64,000 bases of DNA from Candidatus Woesearchaeota archaeon (GTDB lineage: Archaea; Nanobdellota; Nanobdellia; Woesearchaeales; GW2011-AR4), in the NCBI GenBank assembly GCA_016184145.1, contig JACPDF010000023.1:1229-65228 (forward strand). The letters run 5' to 3'. The notes under the pieces are model-generated. The model did not search any database and had not been told where the DNA came from. It saw nothing but the letters and a program-made list of their open reading frames with translations. This document shows positions 4,117 to 59,704 of the stretch, in pieces. The position numbers and the translations under genes are program-made. Numbering within the stretch: position 1 is the first letter of the stretch; each line of letters starts with the position of its first letter.

Positions 4117-4154
4117 TCGCATTTATTTTTCCTGATTTAAGAAGCGTATTCTGC

Positions 4155-15203: not shown

Positions 15204-15472
15204 GTCAAGTTATGTGTGTTGTTAAATTTTCAATCCACCTTCGGCCAATATAGTCGCTCGGCTCGCTCCCTTGCCATACGCTCGCCTCGCGGATTTATTT
15301 CTAATCAATTATGCTCTTTCGACACTTAACTTGAAATTGCCTAAGAAAAGCCAAAAGCTTAAATAGCACCTTGCCTATATCTTTCCTATAAGTTATCATT
15401 AAGTTATCATTAATATAGGCATAACTTATATAATGAAATATATATATTCTACAAAATAACTAAATCGCAACA

Positions 15473-15573
15473 TTTAAATAGGATTAATTTACTTATACTG
15501 CAGAGAAACTCATAATCATGAGAGTTTCCTATATAAACAACAAAAAAACAAACACAAGGAGGTGTTTAGTCAG
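15473..15573 (+). promoter_or_regulatory. putative promoter/RBS region of the S-layer-like gene
   Basis: TTTAAATA box at 15473-15480 and GGAGGTG at 15558-15564, 9 nt before the ATG at 15574. Confidence 0.3.
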
Positions 15574-32727: not shown

Positions 32728-32961
32728 TCAAATTCCTATACTCTAATTTTCACAATTATTTGTTATCTCATTATTTTATTGCAAATTTAATCTTTTAAGG
32801 CATTGAAATAAAAATGATATTTATCCTGCGTTTTTGCTATAATCCTTTTTAAAGGCAAAAACGCCGGGTTATATTTCATTTTTTATTTTATTGAATTTTG
32901 ATTTGTTTTGTCAATAATTATTATTGTCAATTTTGTTTATTGGAATTGTTTTTTCATTGGC
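32728..32961. repeat. intergenic repeat module family 1, copy 2; hairpin core 32825-32868
   Basis: CCTGCGTTTTTGC-N17-GGCAAAAACGCCGGG followed by a T-rich tract and ttattgg motifs. Confidence 0.55.
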
Positions 32962-33918
32962 TTAGTATTCTATCTTAAACTTTTCAATTAATTCCTTCTT
33001 TAATTTGTCTCCGATAAACTTGCCTTTGAAATAATCAACCCTTGCTGCAATGCTTGCCTTGTCGGCTAATGCCCTTGCCACTTTGCCATACATCTCTCTT
33101 TTTGATTTTTGAATTAGCTGATGCTCATGTATGAGCCCAAATTTTGGGGGCCTGTTCTTTTTGTTTCTCATGTGCCTGAACAATGCCTTTTCCGCGCCTA
33201 AAACCTGCAGTGTGGAAGCTGGCATCTCTGCAAGCCTCTTTAAGGAGCCGGTATGCTCTATGAGCTTTGCAGCCATAGCAACTCCAAGAATAGCGGCTAA
33301 ATTAGGGCAGGTTTCCTTTTCCAGCTCCTTAAGATAATTTTCATAATGGGCCCTTAGCGCATAGAGGCTGTTTATTTGCGCTGCGAGGGATAATATTGCA
33401 GAAATGTCCTTTTCCTTTAAATCAGAGCCAATGGAATCCTTTTCGTCAATATCAAACTCATCTAATAACTGCTTTTTTGACTTTTTTGCTATCAATGAGG
33501 AAAATTTCTCATGGTCCCTTATCTTATCGGAAGCCTCAGGGTTATAGAGGGAGTACCATTCCCTTAGCCTTTTTGTCAGTAGATTAAGGGTTTTGTCAAT
33601 TTCCCCGATAGCGCCTGCTGCCTGGACTATAAATAAATCATTATTCACAGACTCCTTTATTGAGTTTTTAGTCAGCTCAAGATTTTTTTTAAGGAATCCA
33701 GGAAAGTATTTCCTGTTTTTGAAGAACAGCAATATGTTGTGAAGGTCATTGTCTTCCGGCTTTGCAAGGTTTCCATGCTTTTGCCTTAGCTTATCCTCAT
33801 ATATTCCCTTTTCTTTAAACTGCCCAATATCCTTGAAAAGTATTTCTTCTACTGCCTTATAGTTTTCTGTAAAGACATAGCTTCCCAAGATGTTGGTAAA
33901 GATGAATTTTGATGGCAT
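32962..33918 (-). CDS. nop5: Nop5/Nop56 C/D box RNP protein (short form)
   Basis: NOP domain AILGVAMAAKLIEHTGSLKRLAEMPASTLQVLGAEKALFRH; 318 aa, apparently short coiled-coil region. Confidence 0.85.
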   Translation of the reverse strand: MPSKFIFTNILGSYVFTENYKAVEEILFKDIGQFKEKGIYEDKLRQKHGNLAKPEDNDLHNILLFFKNRKYFPGFLKKNLELTKNSIKESVNNDLFIVQAAGAIGEIDKTLNLLTKRLREWYSLYNPEASDKIRDHEKFSSLIAKKSKKQLLDEFDIDEKDSIGSDLKEKDISAILSLAAQINSLYALRAHYENYLKELEKETCPNLAAILGVAMAAKLIEHTGSLKRLAEMPASTLQVLGAEKALFRHMRNKKNRPPKFGLIHEHQLIQKSKREMYGKVARALADKASIAARVDYFKGKFIGDKLKKELIEKFKIEY

Positions 33919-37498: not shown

Positions 37499-37579
37499 AA
37501 AAGCTTTAAAAAGGATATTCGCTTTTATATACTAAAAAGTGGTGGTTTTTGTAGTTTTTCGCCGCATGAGGCATTTTAA

Positions 37580-40500
37580 ATGAAAAAACCACTGTTATTT
37601 TTAATAAGCTGTACTTTGTTTTTGTTATTCTCCACAATATCTGTTACTGCACTTTTTGGGAGGGTTGCCTATAATCAGACATTTCATGATATTTGCTTTA
37701 AGATTAATGATGATTATTATCACTTCCTAATTGACCACACCCAGGCAGACAGCTGGCCTTGTGGTGGCATTGATATAACAGACGATTCCATAAGGCTAGA
37801 GTGTATAAGTGATTTTGACGGGGCGTTTCAACACCAGTATGCACCATGTAGGGTAAGTGGAGGTCAATCTTGCGGAAGGTTTAGCTTCTATTCAAACCAG
37901 GCCTATGGAGTACATACAAATTCTGAAGAGCCTAGCTGGGATCCCACAGGACTTTTTGATGGCACTACAACCATAGATGGATATCCTTACTCACAGTACC
38001 TTACAGAAAGCTTCCAACGGGCAAACAGCCCTGTTCCGCATAGATTTTATTCTGATGGCAATTCCTGTCCCTCAGCTATAATTCAATCCACTAGCCCCAA
38101 CAACGATTCATTTACGCACCAAAGGGAGAATACAATAACGATCAACACGGATGCTGTTTCTGAATGCAGGTATTCAAATGATTCAGCTTCAAACTTCGCC
38201 AACATGATATATTTTCAGAGTACAAATTCAAATGCTCACACATTTAGCTTTAATGCAACAGAATTGATAAATTACAGCTTCTATGTAAAATGCAACACTA
38301 CGCTTGGAGACGTGAATAATGAGCATTATATTTTTAGAATTAGAACTGAAAATTTTGCCCCAATAATTGTAAGATCAATCGGAACTTTAACTACTTTGGT
38401 AAACCAGACCTTCATTTATCACGTGTGGGCCTATGATCCGGATGGTGACAAAATAAACGTCTCTGATGATACTGATTTATTTGACATAGATAGCACCACC
38501 GGGTTTATAAACTTCATACCTTTAACAAATGGTACATACAAAATAAATATCAGCGTAAAAGATGACAACACCATAAAATCGTTGAGTTCGTATGAAATTA
38601 TGATGTTGGTTGTTCTTAATGAAAATGATACTATTGCCCCCAATATATCAATTATAAGCCCTCTGAACGGCTCGACAGTAACTACAAACTTCACATGGAT
38701 TAACGCAACCACGAATGAAAGCGCGACATGCAGTTACAAGCTTGAATACGAATGCAGCGACTGCGAGCCTGCTTTTACACAGATGAATAATACAGGAGGG
38801 GCTATACATAAGCATTATATCGATAATCTGGAAAATAAAAGCTATAATCTCACTGTAAGTTGCAAGGATGTGGCATTGAACAAAAAAAATGTTACAATAT
38901 CTTTTAATGTTGCCTTTCCTCAGCCTGCCTCTAGTGAAGGCGGTGGAGGCGGTGGAGGTGGTATAGCAAACATATCAAACCCCTACAACCTGACAATAAC
39001 TGTAAATTCGCCAACAAACAATTCAATAATCAATTCCATTTCCGTAGATTTAGACATTTCAACGGATAGATATGCTGTATGCAGATATAGTTTGGATTCC
39101 GGCATATTTAATTCTTTGGATAGAACAGTCGTGGTAACAAGTGACGCATGGAAAGTTGGAACCTCTACAAAAATATTGGAGATAAGCGAAGACCTTCTAA
39201 TTGGAACAAACAGGGAAACTTTGAGAAACATCACAACCTTTATAGACGATTCAGAGCTAAATGCCTTGGCATCTGGCACAGTTTCAAACTCAAAAGGGGA
39301 TGCTCCATATAACCAATACCTATATCTATTAGGGCCGGGAGCAGCAGCTCAAGTAAATACAGGTTATGTCATCTACACAGAAGATGACAATGACGTGACA
39401 GCAGATTTCCTGTACTTCAAATCAGGAACTGAAATAGCAAGATACCTTTTGGAATTTACAACCTCTCTTGAATCGGATGTTGATGACAATACTGGAACAG
39501 CAACAACAACAGGCCTTTACTTAACGGATTTTGAAGATGTTGATATAACTATGTTTGGCAAAACATATACAATCGTACAAGCGCAAAGAGTAAATTCAAC
39601 TGGAAATAATGTCAAATTAATTTTGATTTCTGGAGCTATAAGAGACACACTAGTGGAAGGAAACACAAAAACATACACAACCGATGGAAAAGACTATGAA
39701 GTTACAGTAGACTACGTAGACTCGAACAGCGCTAAGTTCACAATAAACGGAGAAAGCACAAGAGATTTGCTTGATGGAGACACAGATAAAATATCAGATG
39801 GGACCACAATAGGTGTTTCAGAGATATTGTACCAAGATTATGCTGGCGGTATCCACACCGTAACATTCTTCTTGGGAGCACAGAAAGTGGAGTTAACAGA
39901 TACGAACATAAGAGATGTTGCATCTTCCAATAACCTAAAAATTGATGATGAAACAATAGACGATGCGTATACCATCATAGAGGGAAGTGACAACAACAGC
40001 ACATTTAAGATAGGCAGGATACACGTAAACATGACTGCAGACGATGACTTTTATGTGCCAGCAGGAGGCAAATTAAGCGAGAATCCTGATATGAGTGAGC
40101 CGCAAGTTCTGTTTACGCAAAATTGGGACATAGGGTATTGGGGCTTAACTGACGAACCAATAGAAACTATTGAAATCGCAACTAGCGGTCCTAGTAGATA
40201 CATATTGAAGTTTAAAGATGGAGACGGAAGCGAAGCAAGCCTGCCTTTGGCAGAAGCTGTCGGGGCTTCAACACTAGAATTTGGAGAAAAAAACAGGGCA
40301 TTAGTCAATAGAGAAAATCTGGTTATAACCAAAGATGATTATTTAATTCTCACAGACAGCAGCGAAGAAAGAGGAAAAAGAAAAACATACGCATTGCAGT
40401 ATAAAGGCGCTGATAAGATCACTGCAGACAGCCACGTATTGAAATTTAAGGATTTGGGTAATGGAGAGACAATAGAACAGACTTATACAGACGCCAGCCC

Positions 40501-42799
40501 CTTAGCAACTTTAAAGTTAGGCGGTGCAGATTTCAAAGTCTATAAAGCGCCTGGAGCAAGTATTTCTGCTAATGATTTTGACATACAAGTTGATTTAGAT
40601 GCGGATAGTATTTTAGAAACCTCAGGAGAGTTTATATCAATAACTACTTGGTATGGCGCAGAAATAAACATAACAAATGAAACTGCCAATAGGATAGACT
40701 TCGCTGTTAAAACACCAGATGATGATAGAGACAGCAATGCAGAAGATAATGTCGAGACTTTACAAGCCACAGATTTAACCGGTTATGTATATGTGAGTTC
40801 TGATTCTGTTAACATTCAAAGGACAGGAAATTTGAATTTCAGGACTCCAGGTGGGGAGACTAATGTAGCTTATGCTTATACAAGCTATGGGACGTTTATA
40901 ACCCACAATATGCCATCAGATGAGCCAGCGACATTGGTAATTGAATACCCTGAAAGACAGAGAGAAGCGCTTGTTTATATTACAACACCCCAGCAAACAG
41001 AAAATACCTACAAAAAAACGTTAAATAACTTGGCAGAGGGGCAGCATACAATCCTGATAAACTGCACAGATTCGTTAGGAAAGCCATATACAGAATTTCT
41101 TGGCTTCGACACCGGAAAATTAATAAAAGACCAAAGTTTACAAATCACATTTAATAGCCCAATTAATAACTCGATTTTTTATGGCGATTATGTCAATTTG
41201 GATGTGTCTACGAACAAATCTGCGAATTGTTTGTATAGCCTTGATTATGGTACATACAACAACTTAACCAATCCCTTAATAATAAATGAAACTACCTTAG
41301 TCGATGTTAATGTTTCAATATTTGATGTACTAGTGGAGGGGGAGACTAAAACTTATTCAATAGGCAATTATGATTATGAAGTTACATTAAATTTTGTAAG
41401 TCCTACTGAAGCACAGTTCACAGTTAATGGTGAAACGATATCAAAGCTGGAAAATGGATTTATTGATTACCTTATAGATGGAACCATAATTGGGGTTGAT
41501 GAGATTGTATATGAAGATTTTGCTGGAGGTTTGCACTACGCATATTTCTTTTTAGGGACGGAAATTAACAGTACAACAATACTTAACATTACAAATTTTA
41601 ACACTATTCATTCGATAAACTTGACAAATTTGGATGAGGGTGAACATAATATTAAAGTCAAATGTAACGATATTGATGACAATTACAATAGTGATTTTTT
41701 AAATTTTAAATTTTTTAATAATATTTGCGTGACGAAATGGGAATGCTTAAATTTCTTGTGCGGTTCCGATGAAAGAAAAAGGTGCAACCAAGTTTTTGAC
41801 TTGAATAACTGTTATTCTAAAACTAATCTAGAGAAAGATTTGTACAATGGTGATTATAAAGAGTTTGAAGAAGTGTGTGATTATAATAATGATCACCTAT
41901 TTGGCAATTTTACAAATATTTCCCATAATCTTAATAACCTTAGCTTTGTAATAGAAAATGAAAGTATAAAAATATCAGAAGGAAACGAAACAATATTATT
42001 CTTTAATTTCAGTTTTATTAATTTTGAATTAAATTTTTTCAATATAACAATTCAAAAACAAAATAATCTTTCAACAAAAGGCTCAATTTTCATCTCCGGA
42101 ATAGATCTAACCTCCCAGAATAAAACTAAAACAGTTTATATGGACAAAATAAGCGGCAATAGAGTGTGCATTAAAGACGAAGAAGTTCTTTCAATAAATC
42201 AAATAACGTCTGATTGTTCTAATTCAAGCGAAATTTCTTTGATATGTGATGGTGCAACAAGGAGTGATTACGCATGCACCGATTTAGGAAACAAATATAA
42301 AATAGAAGGATTAATACACTCAGGAGCAATAGAATATACTTTCAATCCTGCACCAGAACCATCCCCACCATCTGGAGGCGGAGGAGGTGGTGGCGGAGGC
42401 GGAGGAGGTGGTGGTGGAGGTTCTGGGCTGTCTTACACCTGCAACATGGACTGGAGCTGCTCAGACTGGTCTGCTTGCGAGGCAGGCTGGGAAACAAGGA
42501 AATGTGATTTTGTAAAAGTTGCGCAGCACACACAGAGTGAAGAGTGCCCATCAATAGATAGTGTACCTGCTATGGCAAGAAAATGCGAAGTAATTCAAGA
42601 GTTGGAAAAAGAGATTAAGGGGGCAGAGGAAAGTGTAAATGATACAGCCAAAACTGAAGAAAGTAAAAATCAAATAACAGGAATGGCTGTTTCTGAAGTT
42701 GAGGGAAAACCAAACTTATTGGTTGGTATAGTATCTTTGATTTTAATAGTAACTATGGGGATTTTCTTGTATTATCGCTTATTTTTCAGAAAGAAATAA
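37580..42799 (+). CDS. giant surface protein (1739 aa): signal peptide, Ig-like/beta-rich domains, embedded S-layer-paralog block, poly-Gly linkers, Cys-rich stalk, C-terminal TM anchor
   Basis: N-terminal signal; residues about 520-1140 are about 75% identical to the 15574-18183 product; GGGGGGGGG and SGGGGGGGGGGGGGGGGSG runs; C-terminal LLVGIVSLILIVTMGIFLYYRLFFRKK. Confidence 0.7.
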   Translation: MKKPLLFLISCTLFLLFSTISVTALFGRVAYNQTFHDICFKINDDYYHFLIDHTQADSWPCGGIDITDDSIRLECISDFDGAFQHQYAPCRVSGGQSCGRFSFYSNQAYGVHTNSEEPSWDPTGLFDGTTTIDGYPYSQYLTESFQRANSPVPHRFYSDGNSCPSAIIQSTSPNNDSFTHQRENTITINTDAVSECRYSNDSASNFANMIYFQSTNSNAHTFSFNATELINYSFYVKCNTTLGDVNNEHYIFRIRTENFAPIIVRSIGTLTTLVNQTFIYHVWAYDPDGDKINVSDDTDLFDIDSTTGFINFIPLTNGTYKINISVKDDNTIKSLSSYEIMMLVVLNENDTIAPNISIISPLNGSTVTTNFTWINATTNESATCSYKLEYECSDCEPAFTQMNNTGGAIHKHYIDNLENKSYNLTVSCKDVALNKKNVTISFNVAFPQPASSEGGGGGGGGIANISNPYNLTITVNSPTNNSIINSISVDLDISTDRYAVCRYSLDSGIFNSLDRTVVVTSDAWKVGTSTKILEISEDLLIGTNRETLRNITTFIDDSELNALASGTVSNSKGDAPYNQYLYLLGPGAAAQVNTGYVIYTEDDNDVTADFLYFKSGTEIARYLLEFTTSLESDVDDNTGTATTTGLYLTDFEDVDITMFGKTYTIVQAQRVNSTGNNVKLILISGAIRDTLVEGNTKTYTTDGKDYEVTVDYVDSNSAKFTINGESTRDLLDGDTDKISDGTTIGVSEILYQDYAGGIHTVTFFLGAQKVELTDTNIRDVASSNNLKIDDETIDDAYTIIEGSDNNSTFKIGRIHVNMTADDDFYVPAGGKLSENPDMSEPQVLFTQNWDIGYWGLTDEPIETIEIATSGPSRYILKFKDGDGSEASLPLAEAVGASTLEFGEKNRALVNRENLVITKDDYLILTDSSEERGKRKTYALQYKGADKITADSHVLKFKDLGNGETIEQTYTDASPLATLKLGGADFKVYKAPGASISANDFDIQVDLDADSILETSGEFISITTWYGAEINITNETANRIDFAVKTPDDDRDSNAEDNVETLQATDLTGYVYVSSDSVNIQRTGNLNFRTPGGETNVAYAYTSYGTFITHNMPSDEPATLVIEYPERQREALVYITTPQQTENTYKKTLNNLAEGQHTILINCTDSLGKPYTEFLGFDTGKLIKDQSLQITFNSPINNSIFYGDYVNLDVSTNKSANCLYSLDYGTYNNLTNPLIINETTLVDVNVSIFDVLVEGETKTYSIGNYDYEVTLNFVSPTEAQFTVNGETISKLENGFIDYLIDGTIIGVDEIVYEDFAGGLHYAYFFLGTEINSTTILNITNFNTIHSINLTNLDEGEHNIKVKCNDIDDNYNSDFLNFKFFNNICVTKWECLNFLCGSDERKRCNQVFDLNNCYSKTNLEKDLYNGDYKEFEEVCDYNNDHLFGNFTNISHNLNNLSFVIENESIKISEGNETILFFNFSFINFELNFFNITIQKQNNLSTKGSIFISGIDLTSQNKTKTVYMDKISGNRVCIKDEEVLSINQITSDCSNSSEISLICDGATRSDYACTDLGNKYKIEGLIHSGAIEYTFNPAPEPSPPSGGGGGGGGGGGGGGGGSGLSYTCNMDWSCSDWSACEAGWETRKCDFVKVAQHTQSEECPSIDSVPAMARKCEVIQELEKEIKGAEESVNDTAKTEESKNQITGMAVSEVEGKPNLLVGIVSLILIVTMGIFLYYRLFFRKK
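39144..40990. repeat. about 1.85-kb paralogous block shared with the S-layer-like gene (15838-17745)
   Basis: DNA stretches such as gatgc(a/t)ccatataaccaata(c/t)ctatatctattagggcc are identical; protein identity about 75% over about 640 aa. Confidence 0.7.
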
Positions 42800-42805
42800 T
42801 AGTCA

Positions 42806-43486
42806 TCAATTCTCAATCATAGTCCCATTAAATTTCCTATCATTCAGCAAATTCTCAAAATTTCTTAAATCTTTGCCTATAATTATCACTTTTATTCCTG
42901 ACTTTTCGGCTTCTTTTGCCGCTATCGGGTCAAAAGGTGCGTTTAATCCGGCAATCCATTTGTCTCCTACCATCCTCCTATAGTGTTTCCAGCAGATATT
43001 TTTTATTTTTTTTGCATTTTTGTGCTTTTTAGGGTCTTTATCATAAACATAATCAACATTGCTCATATTGATTACTGTTTTTGCTTTAAGGTTCTTTGCC
43101 AACAAGACAGCATCATAGTCAGTTGACCATCCCGGCTTCCATCCGGAGGCTAATATTATTTTTTTATTGGAATCAATTTTTTTAGTCGGGTTTTGAATAA
43201 TGTTCTTATCAGCAGAATTCCCGAAAACCTGCTTGACAACATTTGCGTTTATCATGGTTGCGTATATGCCCAGCCAGTCCAAATCGCGGCTTGTAATGTT
43301 CTTCTTCCTGGAAGCTGCCTTTTGGAATTGCCTTGCTATTGAGCCTCCGCCGCATACAACAACAAAACGGTAATTTTTTTTAATATATTTTTCAATGGTT
43401 TTCCTGAAATTTTTTAGAAAAGATACATCTATTTTGTCTGGAGCAATTAATGAGCCGCCTAATGAGAGGATTATTGTTTTTGGCAT
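42806..43486 (-). CDS. pyrH: uridylate kinase (archaeal type)
   Basis: amino-acid-kinase fold: ILSLGGSLI, VVVCGGGSIAR, ILASGWKPGWSTDYDAVLLA. Confidence 0.75.
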   Translation of the reverse strand: MPKTIILSLGGSLIAPDKIDVSFLKNFRKTIEKYIKKNYRFVVVCGGGSIARQFQKAASRKKNITSRDLDWLGIYATMINANVVKQVFGNSADKNIIQNPTKKIDSNKKIILASGWKPGWSTDYDAVLLAKNLKAKTVINMSNVDYVYDKDPKKHKNAKKIKNICWKHYRRMVGDKWIAGLNAPFDPIAAKEAEKSGIKVIIIGKDLRNFENLLNDRKFNGTMIEN

Positions 43487-47161: not shown

Positions 47162-47509
47162 TTTTCAAACCAAAATTATTTTTATTTGAATTTTTCCAAT
47201 AATAATCAGTTTCTATCCTATGATGCATAACTATTTGCTATGGTTTATTTAATTTCACTTTTGATATCATTCTTGCATTGAAAAATATTTAATCATAGCC
47301 TGCGTTTTTGCCATCCTGCTTTGCTAAGGCAAAAACGCCGGTTATTATTTTTTTGTTTTTATTGGCATTGTTTTATTGATTTATTTGTAAACTATTGGAT
47401 TTAATGCCTTAGTTGTGCACTTGTTTGCGAGCCTTATTGGCATTCCTTTTTTTATTGCAGCTTTGTTTTGATTATTTTTTGGATTATTCTTTCTGATTTT
47501 CATACTATT
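47162..47509. repeat. intergenic repeat module family 1, copy 3; hairpin core 47299-47341
   Basis: CCTGCGTTTTTGCC-N16-GGCAAAAACGCCGG plus extended homology to copy 1 (gtgcacttgtttgcgagccttattggcatt versus gagcacttgtttgtgaacttattggcatt). Confidence 0.6.
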
Positions 47510-49225
47510 CTAATCCCTCAACAAAATCTCAATTACTCTTGCGAACACCGGCCTGGAAATAAATACCCCGATTGATGCGCCCAATATTGTTATGATTGCA
47601 AAGCCCTTTAATAATCCGGCTCCGGCAAATATCAGCGGTATTAAGGCAACAAAAACAGTAAAATAGGACGTCATTATAATTGAGAAAGCCCTCTTTATCC
47701 TTTCCTTCCAGTTTGCGGCAAATCTCTCCCCCCTTAAAGTCTCGTCGGTTATGACAATCTGGTGGTTTACCCCAGTGCCTACTGTTATTATAATTCCTGC
47801 CACTGCCGCCAAGTCAATATTCCATCCTATTAATGCCGCTACCCCCAGCAGCAATATAATTTCAGATGCCGAAACTATCACAATTGGAATTGAAATCACC
47901 AATTTTCTGTATCTTGCAAATATAACAACAGAAACAACCGCTAAAGACAAAACAGCCGCAATAATTGCATTCCTCAAAAATTCCTCTCCAAGCAATGGGC
48001 TGATTGCATCTATCTTTACGATATCCAGTTTGATTGGCAAAGAGCCGGTAATGAGGACTGTCTGCAGCCTTTTCATATTGCCCAATGCATCAAATACTGC
48101 CTGTTGCTGGTTGGAGCCGACACCGCTCCCTGAAATCTGTATCTCTGTTGTTGCGCTTCCCTGCAGCTCAACGCCTATGTTAAGCTCGTCAACTTTTGCA
48201 TCATCAAGATAAAGCTCCAATGGCTCAGATAAGTATCTTCCATCACCTGCCACCGGAATGTTCCTCGTTATGTCCGCCTGCCTTTGCGCAGCCTCCAGGG
48301 TTATTGAAATTGAGAACCTAAAGCGGCATAAGTCCTGGCTTCCTGAGCTTGAGCAGCCTGCATTTGGGTCTATGCCTGCGCAGTCAGCTGACCTGCATAC
48401 AAAAACAATGTCTTTTCCCCCAATAAAAACAGTCTTATTCGCGATTTTTGCCTCGAATTTTCCCTGCTTTGCAAGCAAAGTCCTTATTTCCTCCTCTGTT
48501 GCCCCGGCAATCTCGACAAGTATGTACTGGTTGCCAACCAAATCAGAGGCATCCCTTATTATCAAGTCGCTTAATCCGTAAACATTAAGCCTTTCCCCCA
48601 TATTGTCTATTAAAGTCTGCAAATCCTGCGTTGCTAATTTTTTTTCGGGCTGCAAAAGAACTCTTGTTCCTCCCTGCAAATCAAGGCCTTTTCTTATGTT
48701 TGTTTTAGGAGCCTTGAAAACCCTTACTCCAATGTCTTGCGGGCCTTTGCTTACTTGCTTTGTTTTTGGAACATCTATTATTCTCTTTACTGTCTCGTTA
48801 ATCTCCACTACAGCGCCATTAACTGTCCGGTTTTTTGCTGTTATTTCCTCTATTTCCTTTTTCTCTGTCTGATTTAATTTTATTGTTTCTATGTCTTCTT
48901 TTACTTTCAGCCTGTACAATGCCTTATTTGTTTTTATCTGCAATGACTGGTTTATTTTCAATGAGTTGGCAAAATTATAATAGTCCTCAACTGTTTTAAT
49001 CGGCACATTATTAATTTCCAATATTCTCTCCCTGTTGACAGGGCTTATTGTGGGGGTAGGCTGCTGGATGCCCGCTTCCATAGCTGCTGAATTTGAAACT
49101 ACGCTTCTTATTGCAACCCCTTCCACCCATGGCTTTGGATTGATTGAAACTATAGCCAATACTAATAAAACCAGGAAGATTATCACCCTGACATTCTTGA
49201 TTATTTTTTTAGCTTTGTAGTACAT
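47510..49225 (-). CDS. secD: protein-export membrane protein SecD
   Basis: large extracytoplasmic domain then six C-terminal TM helices; downstream of secF. Confidence 0.7.
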   Translation of the reverse strand: MYYKAKKIIKNVRVIIFLVLLVLAIVSINPKPWVEGVAIRSVVSNSAAMEAGIQQPTPTISPVNRERILEINNVPIKTVEDYYNFANSLKINQSLQIKTNKALYRLKVKEDIETIKLNQTEKKEIEEITAKNRTVNGAVVEINETVKRIIDVPKTKQVSKGPQDIGVRVFKAPKTNIRKGLDLQGGTRVLLQPEKKLATQDLQTLIDNMGERLNVYGLSDLIIRDASDLVGNQYILVEIAGATEEEIRTLLAKQGKFEAKIANKTVFIGGKDIVFVCRSADCAGIDPNAGCSSSGSQDLCRFRFSISITLEAAQRQADITRNIPVAGDGRYLSEPLELYLDDAKVDELNIGVELQGSATTEIQISGSGVGSNQQQAVFDALGNMKRLQTVLITGSLPIKLDIVKIDAISPLLGEEFLRNAIIAAVLSLAVVSVVIFARYRKLVISIPIVIVSASEIILLLGVAALIGWNIDLAAVAGIIITVGTGVNHQIVITDETLRGERFAANWKERIKRAFSIIMTSYFTVFVALIPLIFAGAGLLKGFAIITILGASIGVFISRPVFARVIEILLRD

Positions 49226-50222
49226 TTTGCCGCTTCCTTGCTTTTCTTTCCAGGTAAATCCTCAAAATTCCAACGTTTTGTATCCATGTGTTGATTAAAT
49301 CAACTAAAAGCCCGATTAGCAATATTATCATAATCTGCCTTATAACCTCTGATTGCGTTACCAGCAAAGCAGCTATTGCCGCTACAATAGCCGTAGCCGA
49401 CATCATCAAGCCCGTTTTAATTGCCCCATAGACTCTTTCCATTTCTGTTTCTTCTTTTCTTTTTAAGACCCTGGTTGACAGCAAGATATCAGTATCAACG
49501 CTGTAACCAATTAACATTAAGAAAGCTGCAATTCCCGCTGCGCTGATTTTCATGCCAAGCAAATTCACAATAGCCAAGGTTACAACCATATCAGAAAAAG
49601 CTGCAAGTATTACCGCCATAGAGGGCACAAAAGTGCGGAAAGAAATAAACACAACCAATGCCATGAAGACGAATGCAATTGATAATGCAATGAGCAATTC
49701 CTTGAAAAATGAAGCTCCCAAAGAGGGCCCGACAACCTCGACAGCATAATCCTGTGCTGAAAGCTTTTTGTTTAGCGCATTCCCGATTTCCTCTATCAGC
49801 TTGGCGGTTTGCTCCTGGCTAACGTCAGCCTCAACTATAAATCCTGTCTGCCTTCCAAACTGGCTTATCGAATTGGTTGCTATATCGTTGCCAGGGAACT
49901 TTGAAGAAATAGTTTTTTCCAATTGAATTATATCAATATTCTGCTGGGTTGATACTGTAACTGTAACGCCGCCTTTAAGGCTGATGTCCCTGTTTATGAA
50001 ATCCCCTGTTGTTGCGAAATTAAAGCCGATAAGAAGCATTGCTATCAAAAGAAGGGAAAACGGCAGTATTAGCAGCTTCTTGTACTGGCTTTCATAGAAA
50101 TGCTTAATGCCGGAAAACCTGCTCTTAGGGGCTTCTTCCATTCCTGAAAAGAAAAATAATGTTTTTATAAAGGTTGCGGAAAGAAGTCGGAAAAAGAGAT
50201 ATTGAAGTGATTGCTTAATCAC
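49209..50222 (-). CDS. secF: protein-export membrane protein SecF (GTG start)
   Basis: TM1 - about 100-aa loop - five TM helices; overlaps the secD start. Confidence 0.7.
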   Translation of the reverse strand: MIKQSLQYLFFRLLSATFIKTLFFFSGMEEAPKSRFSGIKHFYESQYKKLLILPFSLLLIAMLLIGFNFATTGDFINRDISLKGGVTVTVSTQQNIDIIQLEKTISSKFPGNDIATNSISQFGRQTGFIVEADVSQEQTAKLIEEIGNALNKKLSAQDYAVEVVGPSLGASFFKELLIALSIAFVFMALVVFISFRTFVPSMAVILAAFSDMVVTLAIVNLLGMKISAAGIAAFLMLIGYSVDTDILLSTRVLKRKEETEMERVYGAIKTGLMMSATAIVAAIAALLVTQSEVIRQIMIILLIGLLVDLINTWIQNVGILRIYLERKARKRQNVLQS

Positions 50223-53525: not shown

Positions 53526-54356
53526 CTATTGCTCCATGATCTCATAGAATACATAAAGAACCCTGTCTATTCCCCTGACCAAGTCAAAGCCATTGCCTTC
53601 CACAATAATGCAGTTGCGGTCAAAAGAAACTTTGCTTTCATTCGCTTCCTTCACATATAAAACAAATTTATCTGTATTGTCGCATGTTATTATCGGCCTG
53701 TCCCTGCACGCAAAAGTCTCATTTCTGTCGCAGGCTGCTATAGGCTGCTTAAAGAATATATCTGCCATATGCCGTTCAAAGTCTGCAACTGCAAGAGCTA
53801 CACGCGAAAAATCCTTTCCAGTAGGGTCAAAAGTAACATAATAGTCGGTAGCGTTATTGAAAAGATTGAAATCCAAAGCACCGCTTATCTTAATATCCTC
53901 CACTTCCTTCGGCCCGTACCTGAATTGCACATTATACAATCTGGTCTTTTGTGGGCTTACAAGCTGAATATACCATAAATCCTCAAACTTTACGAAAGAA
54001 TAAACATCTTTGTACAAGTATCCCTGATCCGGCTTTAATTTTCCCTTGAAGTTGAGCTGATGCAGATCATCAATTGTCTTAGGCTGCTCCTGTGTAAAAA
54101 GCCTTATTCCGAATACAACAGCAAAAAGCAGCATCAATAAAACAGCGCCTATTATAAGAATTTTATCTGACTTGAATTTTGCCTCTTTAGGCTCTTCTTT
54201 TTCAGTCTGTGTTTTTTTCTCCGGTATTTCCTCTATTTCCTTTTTCTTTTTTTCATACTCTTCCCTGCTTATGACGCCTTCCTCAAAACTTTCCTCAAGC
54301 TTTTTTAATTTTATTTCTTTCATTGTCAAAAACCACCCATCATAGATGGGTGGCAT
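53526..54356 (-). CDS. membrane-anchored hypothetical protein (paralog of 54622-55284); the true start is probably the internal Met near 54323
   Basis: N-terminal charged SHOCT-like helix and TM; C-terminal region is homologous to the neighbouring gene (RPIITCDNTDKFVLYV.../APVITCSNSTNFVPVVY...). Confidence 0.45.
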   Translation of the reverse strand: MPPIYDGWFLTMKEIKLKKLEESFEEGVISREEYEKKKKEIEEIPEKKTQTEKEEPKEAKFKSDKILIIGAVLLMLLFAVVFGIRLFTQEQPKTIDDLHQLNFKGKLKPDQGYLYKDVYSFVKFEDLWYIQLVSPQKTRLYNVQFRYGPKEVEDIKISGALDFNLFNNATDYYVTFDPTGKDFSRVALAVADFERHMADIFFKQPIAACDRNETFACRDRPIITCDNTDKFVLYVKEANESKVSFDRNCIIVEGNGFDLVRGIDRVLYVFYEIMEQ

Positions 54357-54440
54357 GTAATAATTTTATTATGTATTATGGTGGTTTTTGACTAAGCGAA
54401 TTCCACCACTATTTATCCACCAATCATAGAATTGGTGGAA
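54325..54440. repeat. palindromic element family 2, copy X
   Basis: gtcaaaaaccacc ... ggtggtttttgac 13-bp inverted repeat; ccacccatc/gatgggtgg and ccaccaat/attggtgg palindromes; homologous to 58349-58478. Confidence 0.55.
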
Positions 54441-54518
54441 TTTTAGCGTATTAAACAAACCTTTTTATTATAAATATCCCATAGGGATACAGGAACGTAA
54501 GTGGCTGTATTTAAAATG

Positions 54519-54622
54519 AAAGCTACGAACCTTTGTTGATAATATGACTCCATCGTTCCGAGTCTCCGTAGGAGACTCATTGCATTGGAGTTTGCCTCAA
54601 GGCAAAATAGTGAGTATGCTTT
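54519..54622. repeat. small structured element, long form of the 10566-10596 mini-element
   Basis: same termini, AAAGCTACGAAC ... AGTGAGTATGCTTT, with an 85-nt interior containing gagtctcc/ggagactc and ttgcc/ggcaa hairpins; outer stem aaaatgaaagc/gctttcatttt. Confidence 0.5.
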
Positions 54623-55284
54623 CATTTTATTATCCCCAGAATGCCGTATACAAGCCTGTCCTTAAGCCTTATGACATCTGCATTGCTTGCTGCTTCTGCT
54701 ATAATGCAATTGCCCTGCATATAAATCTTGGTGGCATTCCCTTTTGTAAAATAAACTACAGGCACAAAATTTGTGGAATTGCTGCATGTTATTACCGGCG
54801 CATTATATTTTGTCTGGTTTGTAAAGCCGCTCCTTATAAAAACATTAAAGTTGCTTAGGGTGATGCCCATCTGGTATTGTGCAAGGGCAATTCCCTCCGC
54901 AAATGTATCGTTGATGTCAGAGGTTATGTCAATCTGCGGCTTGTTTTTCAGCCTGCTGATCGCGTTGTCGTCTGCTGGTATAGCCTCAATTTCCGAGGGA
55001 AAATACGTAAACATGGCCTCTCTTCCGTCTATATTAGTGGACCAGAAATCGCCCCTGTTGAAAAACTTAAAGCCGTTATATGCGGCGCTTGCCCTACTGG
55101 AGCCAAATCCAAAGAATATAACGCCAAAAACGCTGCTAATCATTATAAAGCCTATGAAGTAGACCATGAATTTTTTTGTCTTATCAGCCCTGTCGTGATG
55201 CTTTCTCATGAAAAAAAGTGGAAAACTGCTGTATTTAAAGGTTTTTGTAAGATATTTCCAAATGGAAACTGAGTTTAAAAACAA
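54622..55284 (-). CDS. membrane-anchored hypothetical protein (paralog of 53526-54356)
   Basis: N-terminal TM; conserved C-terminal ...ITC.N...F...Y......K.....NCII.E motif block shared with its neighbour. Confidence 0.45.
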   Translation of the reverse strand: MFLNSVSIWKYLTKTFKYSSFPLFFMRKHHDRADKTKKFMVYFIGFIMISSVFGVIFFGFGSSRASAAYNGFKFFNRGDFWSTNIDGREAMFTYFPSEIEAIPADDNAISRLKNKPQIDITSDINDTFAEGIALAQYQMGITLSNFNVFIRSGFTNQTKYNAPVITCSNSTNFVPVVYFTKGNATKIYMQGNCIIAEAASNADVIRLKDRLVYGILGIIK

Positions 55285-55383: not shown

Positions 55384-55932
55384 ATGTCTAAAATAATAAA
55401 CATAGATTCATTTTTGGTGCATTTTTTTGAAGATGCAAATAGATGGTTTCATGTCAGGGAAATGGCCAGATTGGCAAGGGTAAATCCTACAACCGCATCC
55501 AAATATCTTATTAAGCTCCACAAGGAAAATCTGCTTATAAAAAAGTATGAAAAAGGGCATTTATTGTTTAAAGCAAACAACGAAAATGATTTTTACAAAG
55601 ACGCAAAGGTATATTTTAATATAAAGTTATTAAGGCATTCCGGCCTAATCGAATATTTAGACAAGGAACTGCATTATCCTGAAGCAATTGTGCTTTTTGG
55701 CTCTTGCTCTAAAGGAGAAAATGATAAAAACAGCGATTTTGATTTATTTGCTGTAAGCAATGTAAAAAAAGAATTGGATTTAGGCGTATTTGAAAAAAAA
55801 ATTAAGGCAAGAATACAGCTATTTATCAAAAACAAAAAAGAATTTATAAACCTTCAAAAGGAAAACAAAAATTTAGCTAACGGTATAATCAATGGCATTG
55901 TTATAAAAGGCTACATTGAGGTTTTTGCATGA
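55384..55932 (+). CDS. nucleotidyltransferase (MNT) with N-terminal winged-helix domain
   Basis: IVLFGSCSKGENDKNSDFDLFAV NTase motif. Confidence 0.65.
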   Translation: MSKIINIDSFLVHFFEDANRWFHVREMARLARVNPTTASKYLIKLHKENLLIKKYEKGHLLFKANNENDFYKDAKVYFNIKLLRHSGLIEYLDKELHYPEAIVLFGSCSKGENDKNSDFDLFAVSNVKKELDLGVFEKKIKARIQLFIKNKKEFINLQKENKNLANGIINGIVIKGYIEVFA

Positions 55933-56345
55933 GATTTCAGGATTTCATAGAACAAGGCAAAGCCAGGAAAGGAAGCCCGGACGTTTCTAAAGTTAAATCT
56001 TTACTGGAAACTTCAAATAATCATTTATTGTTTCTAGAAAATCAAAAAATCAATGAAGTAAGCGCAGGAAGCATTTTAACAACTTACTATGAGGCATTAA
56101 GGGAAATAGTCGAGGCTATTTGTTTAAAAGAAGGATTTAAAGTCTACTCGCATGAGGCATTTACTTATTTCCTAAAAGAGAAAAATGAGGATATAATTGC
56201 GATAAAATTTGATAATCTGAGAAAGCTCAGAAATTCCATAAACTATTATGGCGAAAAAATTAGCTATAAAGAGGCTGAATATGCAAAAGAAGAAGCACTA
56301 AAGCTGATAAGGCTTCTTAAAAATGCATACTTAAAAGGGTTTTAA
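55929..56345 (+). CDS. HEPN-domain protein partner
   Basis: 138 aa, helical; motif region LRKLRNSINYYG; ATGA overlap with the MNT gene. Confidence 0.55.
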   Translation: MRFQDFIEQGKARKGSPDVSKVKSLLETSNNHLLFLENQKINEVSAGSILTTYYEALREIVEAICLKEGFKVYSHEAFTYFLKEKNEDIIAIKFDNLRKLRNSINYYGEKISYKEAEYAKEEALKLIRLLKNAYLKGF

Positions 56346-57076: not shown

Positions 57077-58324
57077 ATGAGAAAAGAATTGTCAGTATTT
57101 TTTATTGCATTGCTGTTTTTTTCTTCAGCTTTTGCAGTTTTAGCAGCACAGAAAACATACAGGCCTGCAAAGATATATGATATAGCTGTTACTTTGGTTA
57201 ACCAGGAGCCTGACCCTGCAGAGCCTGGAAAGTATGTTGATGTGAGGTTCAAGTTCGACAATAACGGCACAGGAGAGGCAAGAAATGTTATAGTGGAATT
57301 GCTGCCAGAATACCCATTCTCATTGGATACTGGAGTAAATGCTATAAGGAATCTTGGGACCATACAGAGCATGCAAAGAGGGGATGTAGGGGTTATTGTA
57401 AAGTACAGGCTGAGAGTTGACGAGAATGCTGTTGAGGGGGAAAACGACCTTAAGATAAGGTACAAGATAGAAGGATACTCGTGGATAGAGCCTGAAGAAT
57501 TCAAAGTTGATGTTCAGACGCATGATGCAGTTCTCTCTGTAAATTCCGTAAGCATAGGTGAAAAGATCCTGCAGCCAGGAGCAAGCAACACTGTAAAAAT
57601 AATGGTGTCAAATGAAGCCGACTCCGCATTAAAAGACATAAAGGCAAGGCTGGAGCTAGGAGGCCTGCCTTTCATACCGTTAGGCTCGACAAACGAGAAA
57701 AGCATCTACAAAATTGATTCAATGGAAAGCTATGAGTTTGATTTTGAAATACTGGCTAATCCGGAAGCCGCTTCAGGAGCCTACCAGGTGCCGTTAAAAA
57801 TAACTTACTCTGACGAGCTTGGAAAACCATATTCCAAAAACAGCACAATAGGGCTTATTGTAGGAGCCAGGCCAGATATAAGCGTCACATTGGACGCTAC
57901 CGAGGTTTATGAAACCAAAAAGCCTGGAGAGATAGTCATAAAAGTTGTGAACAAGGGAGTTACCGACATAAAATTTGCAAATGTAAAGCTCATGCCCAGC
58001 AAAGACTACAGGATATTGTCGAATGATGAGGACTATCTTGGGAATATAGACTCTGACGACTATGAAACAGCAGAGTTCAAGATTTATGTGGAAAATAAAA
58101 AAGACAAAAAAGTAATTCTTCCAATAAGCATCGAGTATATGGATGCGAATAATAATGAATACAAGACAGATATGAACATTGAAATGCCTTTATACAGCGC
58201 ATCAGAGGCCAAAAAGCTTGGATTAGCAGCAGGAAACGGAAAGATTGGCTTTTTTATTGTAGTTCTTATAGTTGCAGCAGGGCTGTTTGCCTACAGAAGA
58301 TGGAAAAGAAGCAGGAAGAAATAA
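57077..58324 (+). CDS. secreted beta-rich (CARDB/DUF11-like) protein with C-terminal TM anchor, ABC-associated
   Basis: signal peptide, repeated beta-sandwich-like segments, C-terminal GFFIVVLIVAAGLFAYRRWKRSRKK. Confidence 0.5.
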   Translation: MRKELSVFFIALLFFSSAFAVLAAQKTYRPAKIYDIAVTLVNQEPDPAEPGKYVDVRFKFDNNGTGEARNVIVELLPEYPFSLDTGVNAIRNLGTIQSMQRGDVGVIVKYRLRVDENAVEGENDLKIRYKIEGYSWIEPEEFKVDVQTHDAVLSVNSVSIGEKILQPGASNTVKIMVSNEADSALKDIKARLELGGLPFIPLGSTNEKSIYKIDSMESYEFDFEILANPEAASGAYQVPLKITYSDELGKPYSKNSTIGLIVGARPDISVTLDATEVYETKKPGEIVIKVVNKGVTDIKFANVKLMPSKDYRILSNDEDYLGNIDSDDYETAEFKIYVENKKDKKVILPISIEYMDANNNEYKTDMNIEMPLYSASEAKKLGLAAGNGKIGFFIVVLIVAAGLFAYRRWKRSRKK

Positions 58325-58348
58325 TGGCTTTTCCTGTACTAAAACAAC

Positions 58349-58478
58349 GGAATTCCACCATTGGTGGAATGAGTAGTGCTCAAAAACCACCATCATTGGT
58401 GGAATTCCGAGTATCAAAAACCATTGAATATGAAACTAATGAAAACATGCCACTGGTCTTTGACTGGTGGTTTTTGAC
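58349..58478. repeat. palindromic element family 2, copy Y
   Basis: ttccaccattggtggaa perfect palindrome; tcaaaaaccacca ... tggtggtttttga 13-bp inverted repeat; shares ggtggtttttgac and catgccac with copy X. Confidence 0.55.
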
Positions 58479-58480
58479 AA

Positions 58481-59704
58481 ATGATCAAAGATTATTTTAT
58501 TTTCTCTGTTAAGAACCTCAGGAACAGAAAGCTGAGGTCATGGCTGACTATGATTGGCATAATCATTGGCATAACAGCAGTTGTTTCGCTCATAAGCATG
58601 GGGCAGGGATTAAAGACCGCAATAAGCCTGCAGTTTGGAGACCTGGGAACGGACAAACTTGCTGTCCAGGCTTCTGGCGGCTTTGGACCTCCTGGCACAG
58701 CGGTTGTAAATCCTCTAACAAAAGACAACCTTGAGGAAGTAAAGAAAGTAAGCGGCGTAAAAATAGCTGCTGGAAGATTGATAAAGCCGGGAAAAATAGA
58801 GCAGGATGATCATGCCACTTTTAGCTATGTTGCAAGCATGCCTGACAGGGAAGCAAGAAAGCTGATCCATGAAGCGCAGAATCTGGAAGCAGAATCCGGA
58901 AGATTGCTTAAGGATGGAGACAAGGGAAAGGTCGTGCTGGGAAGCAATCTTGGAAAAAAAGATGCGGGCCTGGGAAAGCAGGTTGTTGTCGGCTCTAAGA
59001 TAATTATCGAGGGCAAGGAATTTGAAGTGGTGGGCATATTAAAAAAACTGGGAAGCTTTATTCTTGACAATGTAGTCTTTATGAATGAGGATGATTTAAG
59101 GGATGTGATGGACGTTCCTGACAAGGATTATGATGTGATTGTGATACAGGTGCAGCAGAACGCAGATGTAGCTGCTGTCCAGCAACGAGTTGAGAAAGTA
59201 ATGAGGAATGAAAGGGGTGTAAAGGAAGGGGAAGAGGATTTTACTGTGCAAACCCCGCAGGCGATTCTTGGGCAGGTAACTTCAACTTTATTTGCTGTCC
59301 AGCTGTTTGTCTACATAATTGCAGGCATTTCAATAATTGTGGGAGGCATAGGCATAATGAACACCATGTTCACATCAGTTCTTGAAAGGACCAAGGAAAT
59401 AGGGATAATGAAATCAATAGGCGCAAGGAACAGCTCAGTATTTTCCCTGTTTTTTATAGAATCAGGATTAATTGGAAGCATTGGCGGAATTATTGGAGCA
59501 GTTTTTGGAGTTTTGATGGCGTTAGGGCTCGCATTCATTGGAAAATCCCTTTTAGGCACTGATCTTATAAGAGCAGAGATAAGCCCCTGGCTTGTGCTTG
59601 GCTCGGTTTTAGGCTCATTCATATTGGGGAGCTTATTTGGGATTTTGCCAGCTATAAAAGCTGCAAAATTAAATCCTGTTGACGCGCTGAGGTATGCAAA
59701 ATAA
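58481..59704 (+). CDS. ABC transporter permease, MacB/FtsX family
   Basis: N-terminal TM, periplasmic domain, C-terminal FtsX 3-TM bundle. Confidence 0.8.
   Translation: MIKDYFIFSVKNLRNRKLRSWLTMIGIIIGITAVVSLISMGQGLKTAISLQFGDLGTDKLAVQASGGFGPPGTAVVNPLTKDNLEEVKKVSGVKIAAGRLIKPGKIEQDDHATFSYVASMPDREARKLIHEAQNLEAESGRLLKDGDKGKVVLGSNLGKKDAGLGKQVVVGSKIIIEGKEFEVVGILKKLGSFILDNVVFMNEDDLRDVMDVPDKDYDVIVIQVQQNADVAAVQQRVEKVMRNERGVKEGEEDFTVQTPQAILGQVTSTLFAVQLFVYIIAGISIIVGGIGIMNTMFTSVLERTKEIGIMKSIGARNSSVFSLFFIESGLIGSIGGIIGAVFGVLMALGLAFIGKSLLGTDLIRAEISPWLVLGSVLGSFILGSLFGILPAIKAAKLNPVDALRYAK

Follow-up and report, generated by a model that had tools for sequence, protein, structure and literature searches.

Two gene starts in a 64,000-nucleotide stretch of a Candidatus Woesearchaeota genome (assembly GCA_016184145.1, contig JACPDF010000023.1, positions 1,229 to 65,228; hereafter the window) are each immediately preceded by a hairpin-rich element, which we designate copy X (minus strand) and copy Y (plus strand). 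Our analysis indicates that X and Y, which represent different subfamilies, are probably copies of a non-coding, non-autonomous element of the palindrome-associated transposable element (PATE) type that is widespread in Woesearchaeota and Nanoarchaeota. In the mechanism that we propose, the element would move as single-stranded DNA (“peel and paste”) with a Y1/HUH transposase supplied in trans, and the four bases just 5′ of the left hairpin would serve as a DNA “guide” by pairing with the target motif. In the window, both copies were inserted in A-rich DNA directly ahead of a start codon. Each gene would incidentally gain a structured leader that ends in a hairpin, a run of five T (T5) and a Shine-Dalgarno-like GGTGG 9–10 nt before the ATG, which may keep such insertions tolerable.

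Copies X and Y and their boundaries

The preliminary description of this DNA had proposed that two palindromic regions of the window are homologous, and all the sequence blocks that it listed were found in the sequence. Alignment of the reverse complement of 54300-54460 (X) with 58330-58500 (Y) gave 77% column identity, which bears out the homology; X and Y therefore point the same way with respect to their downstream genes. A repeat search within the window also returned a 43-nt match, 79% complementary, between 54323-54365 and 58438-58480. With up to two mismatches allowed, the 13-mer GGTGGTTTTTGAC occurs eight times in the window versus 1.6 expected, a count that none of 100 shuffles reached, and all matches with zero or one mismatch lie inside X or Y. 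RNA folding, which had been suggested as a check, showed that the two copy regions are far more stable than shuffles (z = −5.1 and −5.7). Furthermore, a profile hidden Markov model (HMM) and a covariance model were built from relatives of X and Y, and each was run on the window. Both models found exactly two copies, with covariance-model matches at 58340-58479 (+, 105.5 bits) for Y and at 54324-54453 (−, 101.9 bits) for X, while the antisense strands scored only 35–37 bits.

To define the insertions, we compared orthologous loci (numbered with the prefix L), as had been recommended for the ABC-transporter operon at Y. Orthologs of this operon at 76–86% protein identity lack the Y insert: in L122 (permease identity 86%), L123 (81%), L124 (78%), L002 (77%) and L003 (76%), the gap between the permease and the gene before it is only 15–25 nt. 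The 93% ortholog L001 does have Y, together with a further 105-nt block of nested mini-hairpins. The empty sites of L122 and L123 read cctgtgctaaaaa directly followed by ATG, where the window has cctgtactaaaa, then the element (CAACGG...TTGACA) and aATG. Likewise, the empty X site of L126 (84% ortholog) reads aaaaaggtttgtctata followed by ATG, versus aaaaaggtttgtttaata, the element (CGCTAAAA...TTGACA) and ATG in the window, and X is also absent in the 87% ortholog L125. These comparisons place the boundaries of Y at 58345-58479 and of X at 54448-54324, with no target duplication, and identify the A/T hexamer on the left as ancestral flank. Thus, both loci of the preliminary description stand, while their coordinates change from 54325-54440 to 54324-54448 for X and from 58349-58478 to 58345-58479 for Y. 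The end of X directly adjoins the ATG at 54323 (0 nt gap), and that of Y falls 1 nt short of the ATG at 58481. Both copies terminate in ...CATG-CCAC(n5)-TnT-(n5)GTGG-TTTTTGACA, followed by ATG in X or aATG in Y. The small hairpin before the ATG (CCACCCAUC/GAUGGGUGG in X, CCACUGGUC/GACUGGUGG in Y) differs between the copies by compensatory and G-U changes.

The lengths of orthologs were used to locate the starts of the two genes. The SHOCT-like protein next to X has 265 amino acids (aa) in the NCBI record, and about 120 orthologs have 262–295 aa, mostly 263–270; the orthologs of the permease next to Y are mostly 407 aa long (120 orthologs listed). Therefore, the true starts are the ATG codons at 54323 and 58481, in agreement with the earlier suspicion that the longer open reading frame (ORF) starting at 54356 is an artefact and that the true Met lies at about 54323. 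The similar peptides encoded at X and Y are a by-product of DNA homology, and the MPLVFDWWFLT frame in Y is out of the permease frame. The orthologous ABC operons and X-side orthologs without insert point to a repeated element rather than conserved coding sequence; a repeat limited to two copies, with coding sequence conserved in orthologs, is clearly not what was found. These results correct two gene starts and explain a class of spurious ORF extensions in metagenome-assembled genomes (MAGs) of Woesearchaeota and Nanoarchaeota.

The intergenic spot of X carries a second, independent insertion/deletion polymorphism. A further hairpin-rich spacer of 168 nt with GAGUCUCCUACGGAGACUC lies between the upstream gene and X (54454-54621, minus-strand sense). 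This spacer is common to L126 (1-166), which has two more nested hairpins, and is replaced by only 21 nt in the 87% ortholog L125 (2480-2500). It was considered as a further repeat and rejected, as blastn matched it in L126 only, apart from one weak 40-nt match in L011 at the E-value cutoff.

A family of small intergenic elements in DPANN archaea

The search for further copies that had been called for was performed with the pattern TCAAAAACCAN{30,60}GGTGGTTTTTGAC against a collection of species-representative genomes, and the family sample is defined by this exact pattern. Among the matches listed, more than 118 stretches in about 65–70 assemblies were found, nearly all of Woesearchaeota and Nanoarchaeota; outside these groups, there were one copy in Aenigmatarchaeota and one bacterial chance match, L008 (Magasanikbacteria), which lacks the architecture of the element. 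Viral contigs gave no match to the pattern. Several records (L004, L007, L009 and others) are titled “uncultured Methanosarcinales archaeon” and L035 is titled “Gammaproteobacteria”; many copies in the Methanosarcinales-titled MAGs match those of Woesearchaeota and Nanoarchaeota MAGs, and the labels look unreliable.

All copies are intergenic, with 0 of 122 falling within an ORF. Of the genes downstream, 68 are co-directional with the copy and 41 convergent, so that both orientations occur, and clustering of 632 ORFs around 120 copies showed that the neighbour genes are unrelated housekeeping genes. The element is 125–170 nt long, or up to about 270 nt with nested modules, and contains no ORF beyond read-through artefacts. 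Several subfamilies coexist and are common to different genomes. Copies at different loci of the same genome are 96–100% identical (100% for L012/L116, 98–99% for L004/L047/L114). Near-identical copies at unrelated loci of one genome imply copying rather than conservation, and hence recent mobility.

A search of the window and 16 loci against Rfam 15, at gathering and permissive thresholds, returned only noise and no family match. An origin from tRNA or tmRNA was rejected, with no tRNA or tmRNA found in the window. In the literature searched, no paper pairs Woesearchaeota with miniature inverted-repeat elements, none treats DPANN transposable elements of the miniature inverted-repeat kind (MITEs), and the element sequence appears only in two papers unrelated to it. 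Consequently, this hairpin-rich DPANN element does not appear to have been described before.

Covarying two-domain structure

The element has a modular anatomy. In domain 1, an extended stem called P1 (such as CGGAATTCC.../...GGAATTCCG or TCGAAAATATACC/GGTATATTTTCGA) encloses a left hairpin, CCACCnnTC-TnT-GAnnGGTGG, plus a variable insert. A linker, GAGCATGC, joins this domain to domain 2, which consists of TCAAAAACCAC, a variable hairpin, CATG, a right hairpin with the same CCACCnnTC-TnT-GAnnGGTGG consensus and then TTTTTGACA. The right end is the nearly invariant GGTGGTTTTTGACA, partly by construction because the search pattern fixed that end, while the terminal four nucleotides on the left vary (CATC, CAAC, CGCT or TGTC). 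The distance from hairpin to element end is about 10–14 nt on the left and 9 nt on the right. Subfamily a, to which X and Y belong, has no terminal inverted repeat (TIR).

In an alignment of 66 sequences, the proposed pairs are complementary in 96.9% of cells, compared with 32–55% in slid controls, and cells with changes on both sides number 175 versus 48.8 in shuffles, a value that none of 500 shuffles reached. All 10 pairs of P1 show double changes, and covariation is also seen at the inner pairs of the right hairpin (AU 25 and GC 25, for instance); the search pattern left no room for variation in the outer helix of domain 2. Mismatches in the stems are G.T in 83 cases versus A.C in 32. The TnT loop is on the sense strand in 68 of 92 right hairpins and, in exact form, in 38 of 92 left hairpins, plus register-shifted variants; an AnA loop occurred once. 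Since the TnT loops of both hairpins are on the same strand, the hairpins are direct, not inverted, repeats.

Tandem mini-hairpin modules of about 20–25 nt (nnAAAATc-loop-gATTTTnn, such as cgaaaatcgaagattttcg and aaaaatgcatagcattttt) were also seen inside family members (L001 at 972-1077; also L022, L023/L027/L094, L035, L097, L101-L103 and L121). They usually lie between domain 1 and domain 2 and resemble stripped-down domain-1 stems, which is compatible with either a BOX-like modular build or second-order small mobile repeats.

Target motif and covariation between flank and guide

The empty and filled sites of Y and X agree in showing no target duplication. A family-wide scan likewise found no k-mer match of 2 nt or more between the flanks outside the element ends, at any offset, a result with which a 1-nt duplication of A is still compatible. 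Insertion takes place 3′ of an A/T hexamer, TT[T/A/G]A[A/T]A, which is already present in the empty sites; from −6 to −1, the left flank has T in 86%, T in 89%, T/A/G, A in 96%, A/T and A in 91%. Conservation is restricted to the left flank; the right flank is not conserved.

The flanking DNA covaries with the interior of the element. Flank position −2 and the base directly 5′ of the left hairpin (g1) are complementary in 91 of 103 copies, with a mutual information of 0.53 bits, the highest value tabulated. Where the guide ends in T (GAATT, AAATT, ATTTT or ATATT), flank −2 is A in 65 of 69 copies, and where it ends in A (ATATA, GAATA and two single-copy guides), flank −2 is T in 23 of 24. Position −3 and g2 are complementary in 94%, and the guide AATT pairs in order with TTAA at −5 to −2. 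This correlation of host DNA with an internal base suggests target choice directed by the transposon, which predicts such a pattern, and it offers a testable, sequence-only signature of that process in an uncultivated lineage. A simple guide rule for the right end (CATG with GACA) was rejected; it fits two positions, has about ten exceptions and concerns the end fixed by the search pattern.

Weighing of the PATE-type reading and of its alternatives

PATEs are defined by the lack of a TIR, palindromes near the termini, no target duplication and a size too short for a transposase (PMC3119063), and the concept of TAM and TEM motifs has been set out for IS200/IS605 elements (PMC10055086). The terminal palindromes, the small size and the lack of target duplication of the X/Y family match the PATE definition, as does the lack of a TIR in subfamily a, and the family would follow the TAM/TEM logic.

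Several points weigh against this assignment. No cognate transposase was found in the DNA around the copies that was searched, about 0.94 Mb, with an IS608 TnpA sequence as the Y1 query; this DNA holds a single Y1 TnpA and a single TnpB, neither with the ends of the element. Neighbouring copies have the same orientation in five pairs and opposite orientation in five, a small sample of local pairs only, and lagging-strand targeting of the IS608/ISDra2 kind would not predict this ratio. One subfamily (b) has a 9-nt TIR (TGTCRAAAA/TTTTTGACA), which is atypical for PATEs. The covariation between flank and guide reflects perhaps two to four independent subfamily switches, and X itself breaks the rule (T with T). 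About ten copies have CATT instead of CATG beside the right hairpin although GACA is kept, and the conservation of the right end is, as noted, partly built into the search. Because of the missing transposase, the orientation, the TIR and the small number of switches, we grade the two parts of the reading separately: that the X/Y family is a non-autonomous mobile element is very likely, and that it moves by a single-strand, IS200/IS605-like mechanism is favoured with considerably more reserve.

Four kinds of candidate partner were considered and rejected. Besides the hairpin element, the Nanoarchaeota MAG of L025 has an IS200-like element with a gene for a Y1 (HUH) transposase of 206 aa (3950-4570, −). 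Its own ends are different; it and 27 metagenome relatives (L129-L149) have conserved ends, ...gattctcagaacataaatttttccc... upstream and ...ctaccccactatcgtgggaaggtttaagcccacagattctaa downstream, that are unrelated to X/Y, and neither its flanks nor those of the relatives matched the covariance model or the motifs. A TnpB-like protein of 398 aa with a RuvC motif and a zinc ribbon in the Woesearchaeota isolate ARS74 (L117, 1343-2539, −) has a right end without a match to the element and is possibly a decayed solo copy. A recurrent neighbour protein was excluded as a transposase candidate, as the clustered ORFs form only housekeeping families; those that terminate beside the element encode GlyRS, GatA, radical-SAM proteins and similar. 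Finally, pairs of left and right ends 0.4–5 kb apart, taken as possible autonomous elements, were in all cases two separate small copies flanking ordinary genes.

We consider it unlikely that the family consists of TIR elements, either MITEs or “small mobile repeats” (SMRs) in the Haloquadratum sense, that move by double-stranded cut-and-paste and use the palindromes as protein-binding sites. The halves of the element are roughly mirror-symmetric (TGTCRGAAtt-CCACC-hairpin versus hairpin-GGTGG-TTTTTGACA), a 9-nt TIR does occur in one subfamily, there is no local orientation bias, and SMR-A elements have TIRs yet no target duplication (PMC3119063). However, a TIR is not general, because the terminal four nucleotides on the left vary, and both TnT loops are on the same strand, in direct orientation. 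The stem bases covary instead of being conserved, with G.T exceeding A.C, the target is not duplicated, and the target motif is one-sided and covaries with an internal base. Of the two hallmarks of classical MITEs, target duplication and conserved DDE-related TIRs, duplication was not found and a TIR was found in one subfamily only. Covariation of the variable stem bases, which a base-reading protein would not need, also speaks against an operator array for a transcription factor. The earlier suggestion that the AbrB-like protein recognises CAAAAAC half-sites finds no support, as the helices covary like single-strand hairpins. Such an array was entertained together with a real shared N-terminal peptide because of the many CCACC/GGTGG motifs and the similar translations MPPIYDGWFLT and MPLVFDWWFLT. 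The peptide is refuted by the starts fixed through ortholog lengths, by the Y frame, which is off the permease frame, and by orthologs without the sequence. Taken together, we regard the peptide or operator explanation as hardly credible.

Two explanations treat the element as a functional RNA. A cis-acting leader selected before particular genes (a hairpin that sequesters the Shine-Dalgarno sequence, an attenuator or a thermometer) could account for the GGUGG hairpin 5′ of the ATG, which G-U and compensatory changes preserve in both X and Y, for the terminator-like hairpin and T5, and for the excess of copies at gene starts described below, in a window where GGTG/GAGG motifs 6–9 nt upstream serve internal genes. 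Nevertheless, for about a third of the copies the following gene has its 3′ end towards the element (41 of 109 convergent), the neighbour genes have no common function, close orthologs of both window genes lack the element, identical copies occur at unrelated loci of one genome, and Rfam contains no matching family. We therefore assign this explanation a very low probability. We consider a stand-alone family of small RNA genes, for example of guide type, that duplicates by another route to be just as improbable. Its conserved structure would be strand-specific, as observed, with a TATA-like hexamer at the left edge and T5 at the right end, but the hexamer is ancestral flank outside the unit, and a transcript starting about 23 nt past it would lack the 5′ strand of P1, a stem that covaries strongly.

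Comparison with known elements

The closest named systems are PATEs, as described in Haloquadratum walsbyi (PMC3119063), together with PATE-like elements from Geobacillus stearothermophilus (PMC10055086), which derive from IS200/IS605 (IS1341-type) elements (PMC3119063, PMC10055086). Like PATEs, the X/Y family has no room for a transposase, carries palindromes near both termini and shows no target duplication; it is multi-copy, intergenic and inserted beside a short conserved motif (TAM). It differs in its DPANN hosts, in the lack of a parent insertion sequence or TnpA/TnpB with the same ends around the copies, in a longer TAM (the 6-nt A/T motif), in the short TIR of one subfamily and in its modular build, in which domain 2 is constant and is combined with a single domain 1 stem or with several.

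With IS608 and ISDra2, which use a Y1 HUH TnpA, the family shares subterminal left and right hairpins on the same strand, insertion 3′ of a specific short motif with no duplication and, putatively, in-order complementarity to the target of the bases 5′ of the left hairpin. The foot of the right hairpin is about 10 nt from the end in IS608, compared with 9 nt in the X/Y family, and in IS608 structures TTAC pairs with AAAG. In contrast to these elements, the X/Y family has no transposase gene, a local orientation of 5:5 and a predicted pairing that is offset by one base (−5 to −2).

Pneumococcal BOX, enterobacterial REP/BIME and Neisseria Correia elements are likewise small, intergenic, structured and multi-copy, with a variable number of internal modules, and are often located beside gene starts, where they alter expression. 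Correia elements and typical MITEs duplicate a TA target, and REPs are single palindromes of 20–40 nt tied to RAYT genes. None of these is known from DPANN archaea. The likeness to the X/Y family is one of build and placement, with no sequence relation.

PATEs are reported to “often encode omega-RNAs” (PMC10055086). The omega-RNA (reRNA) scaffold of TnpB is structured, comes from the right end of an IS200/IS605 element and stops at the element boundary, a form that a putative transcript of the X/Y element would share; no TnpB linked to the X/Y ends was found around the copies, and Rfam has no matching model. Overall, the X/Y family is a probable DPANN-wide addition to the PATE/MITE class, with a possible side role in translation initiation. 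DPANN genomes are tiny; this highly successful and structurally constrained mobile element is common to dozens of species.

Placement at gene starts and possible consequences for expression

Among 116 unique copies, nine, from eight independent insertions, lie at an offset of −1 to +2 from an ATG-initiated ORF that is 80 aa or longer, whereas only eight lie at any of the offsets from 3 to 30. A TATA-like box at about −33 to −22, a leaderless-type layout, precedes most first genes of the window, which also have an A-rich tract at −1 to −5. Inspection of about 55 upstream regions showed that many genes have an (A)AACCTTTAAAAA or CATTTATATAA box centred about 25–30 nt before the ATG (for example, upstream of 42806-43486, 49209-50141, 32962-33918 and 54622-55209), which suggests mostly leaderless transcripts. 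Genes internal to operons have GGTG/GAGG motifs 6–9 nt upstream.

Two factors possibly contribute to the start-adjacent placement. One is target availability, as the A-rich tract at −1 to −5 resembles the target motif. The other is tolerance: the element places GGTGG 9–10 nt before the ATG, which we count within the 6–9-nt spacing of internal-gene motifs, so that a gene that was leaderless or tightly coupled before the insertion would still have a ribosome-binding site. The GGTGG-N9 of the element may act as such a site. The hairpin and T5 at the end of the sense strand, terminator-like in X, could therefore attenuate read-through, for example in the ABC operon at Y. The element is probably not a dedicated regulator. 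The start-abutting copies provide natural experiments in which leaderless archaeal genes acquire a structured leader with a ribosome-binding motif.

A more far-reaching idea, to which we give little weight, is that the element is a mobile “expression cassette” or a guide-RNA carrier that homes through its own guide bases to TATA-like A/T hexamers, in many cases the A-rich tract right ahead of a leaderless gene's start codon. If it were an expression cassette, insertion would make a leaderless gene leadered and dependent on a Shine-Dalgarno sequence (GGUGG-N9-AUG), with a switchable hairpin/T5 attenuator in front. Instead or in addition, if it were a guide-RNA carrier, captured TATA-like flanks would drive its transcription into an omega-RNA-like guide for TnpB in trans. 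In both cases, the landing site would be programmed by the guide bases of the element, as the flank–guide covariation suggests. Should a TnpA or TnpB partner be found, the family could provide compact archaeal guide-RNA scaffolds.

Features, neighbouring genes and other repeats of the window

The features of the two copies and of the adjoining gene starts are collected in the table.

Table. Coordinates of copies X and Y, their parts and the adjoining gene starts in the window.
Feature	Position	Strand	Basis
Copy Y, whole element, CAACGGAATTCC...GGTGGTTTTTGACA, 135 nt	58345..58479	+	Empty sites L122/L123; covariance model 105.5 bits
Y left flank/target motif CTAAAA, ancestral, outside the element	58339..58344	+	A-rich tract also in empty sites
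Y domain 1	58345..58413	+	Predicted fold, P1 family covariation
Y P1, CGGAATTCCACCA paired with TGGTGGAATTCCG	58348-58360 with 58397-58409	+	Predicted fold
Y left palindrome GGAATTCCACCATTGGTGGAAT, enclosed by P1	58349-58370	+	Predicted fold
Y domain 2	58414..58479	+	Predicted fold, family covariation
Y domain 2 pairing, TCAAAAACC with GGTTTTTGA	58414-58422 with 58469-58477	+	
Y right hairpin P5, CCACTGGTC-TTT-GACTGGTGG, preceded by CATG	58450-58470	+	
Y T5, then terminal GACA	58471-58475, then 58476-58479	+	
True start of first MacB/FtsX permease gene (58481-59704, 407 aa)	58481..58483	+	Ortholog lengths
Spurious 70-aa ORF through Y, overlapping CARDB gene end and permease start in other frame	58300..58512	+	
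Copy X, whole element, CGCTAAAATTCC...GGTGGTTTTTGACA, 125 nt	54324..54448	−	Empty site L126; covariance model 101.9 bits
X left flank/target motif TTAATA	54449..54454	−	Empty-site comparison
X right hairpin P5, CCACCCATC-TAT-GATGGGTGG	54333..54353	−	Sequence and fold
X T5 and GACA, 3′ of P5 on sense strand	54332-54324	−	
True start of SHOCT-like/membrane protein gene (53526-54323, 265 aa)	54321..54323	−	Ortholog lengths
Spurious 11-codon N-terminal extension MPPIYDGWFLT, read-through of X	54324..54356	−	NCBI protein and ortholog lengths

The X right hairpin with T5 was flagged as terminator-like on the minus strand. Besides the gene for the SHOCT-like/membrane protein (53526-54323, −), the neighbourhood has genes for a nucleotidyltransferase, with a small unannotated ORF after it, for an ABC ATPase, for a CARDB/NPCBM-associated secreted protein and for two MacB/FtsX permeases, the first of which matches MacB_PCD and FtsX in Pfam. 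This first permease is 100% identical to an NCBI protein of a Candidatus Woesearchaeota archaeon, and an exact look-up of it in a gene index gave no entry. The nucleotidyltransferase (Polbeta/NTP_transf_2) and its 138-aa partner gene lie between X and the ABC operon in the window (55384-56345) and in L125 (774-1735). In L003, the pair is found elsewhere, downstream of the ABC operon (14767-15773), so it behaves as a movable two-gene, toxin-antitoxin-like module.

A second set of window repeats, “family 1”, had been proposed as kin of X and Y. This kinship was not upheld: family 1 has a different hairpin, is invisible to the HMM and the covariance model, and resembles X/Y in the A5/T5 run only. 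Alignment of its three copies (about 6726-6845, 32822-32889 and 47245-47364) gave CCTGCGTTTTTGC...GGCAAAAACGC followed by a T-run. The hairpin has 12–13 bp, CCTGCGTTTTTGC(C)...(G)GCAAAAACGC(CGG), with a long T-rich run after it, and the two copies near 6.7 kb and 47.3 kb have up to 120 nt of similar flanking sequence. Family 1 looks like a terminator-type or another small mobile element.

Two further similarities were observed in the window. At 37525-37627, just upstream of a 1739-aa ORF, a weak covariance-model match with GGTGGTTTTTGTA (15.4 bits, E 0.29) is probably due to chance, or possibly a decayed right end. The stretches 15841-16605 and 39146-39901 (also 17191-17310 and 40487-40600), about 23.3 kb apart, are 76–78% identical; they belong to two very large ORFs (15574-18183 and 37580-42799) and are paralogous.

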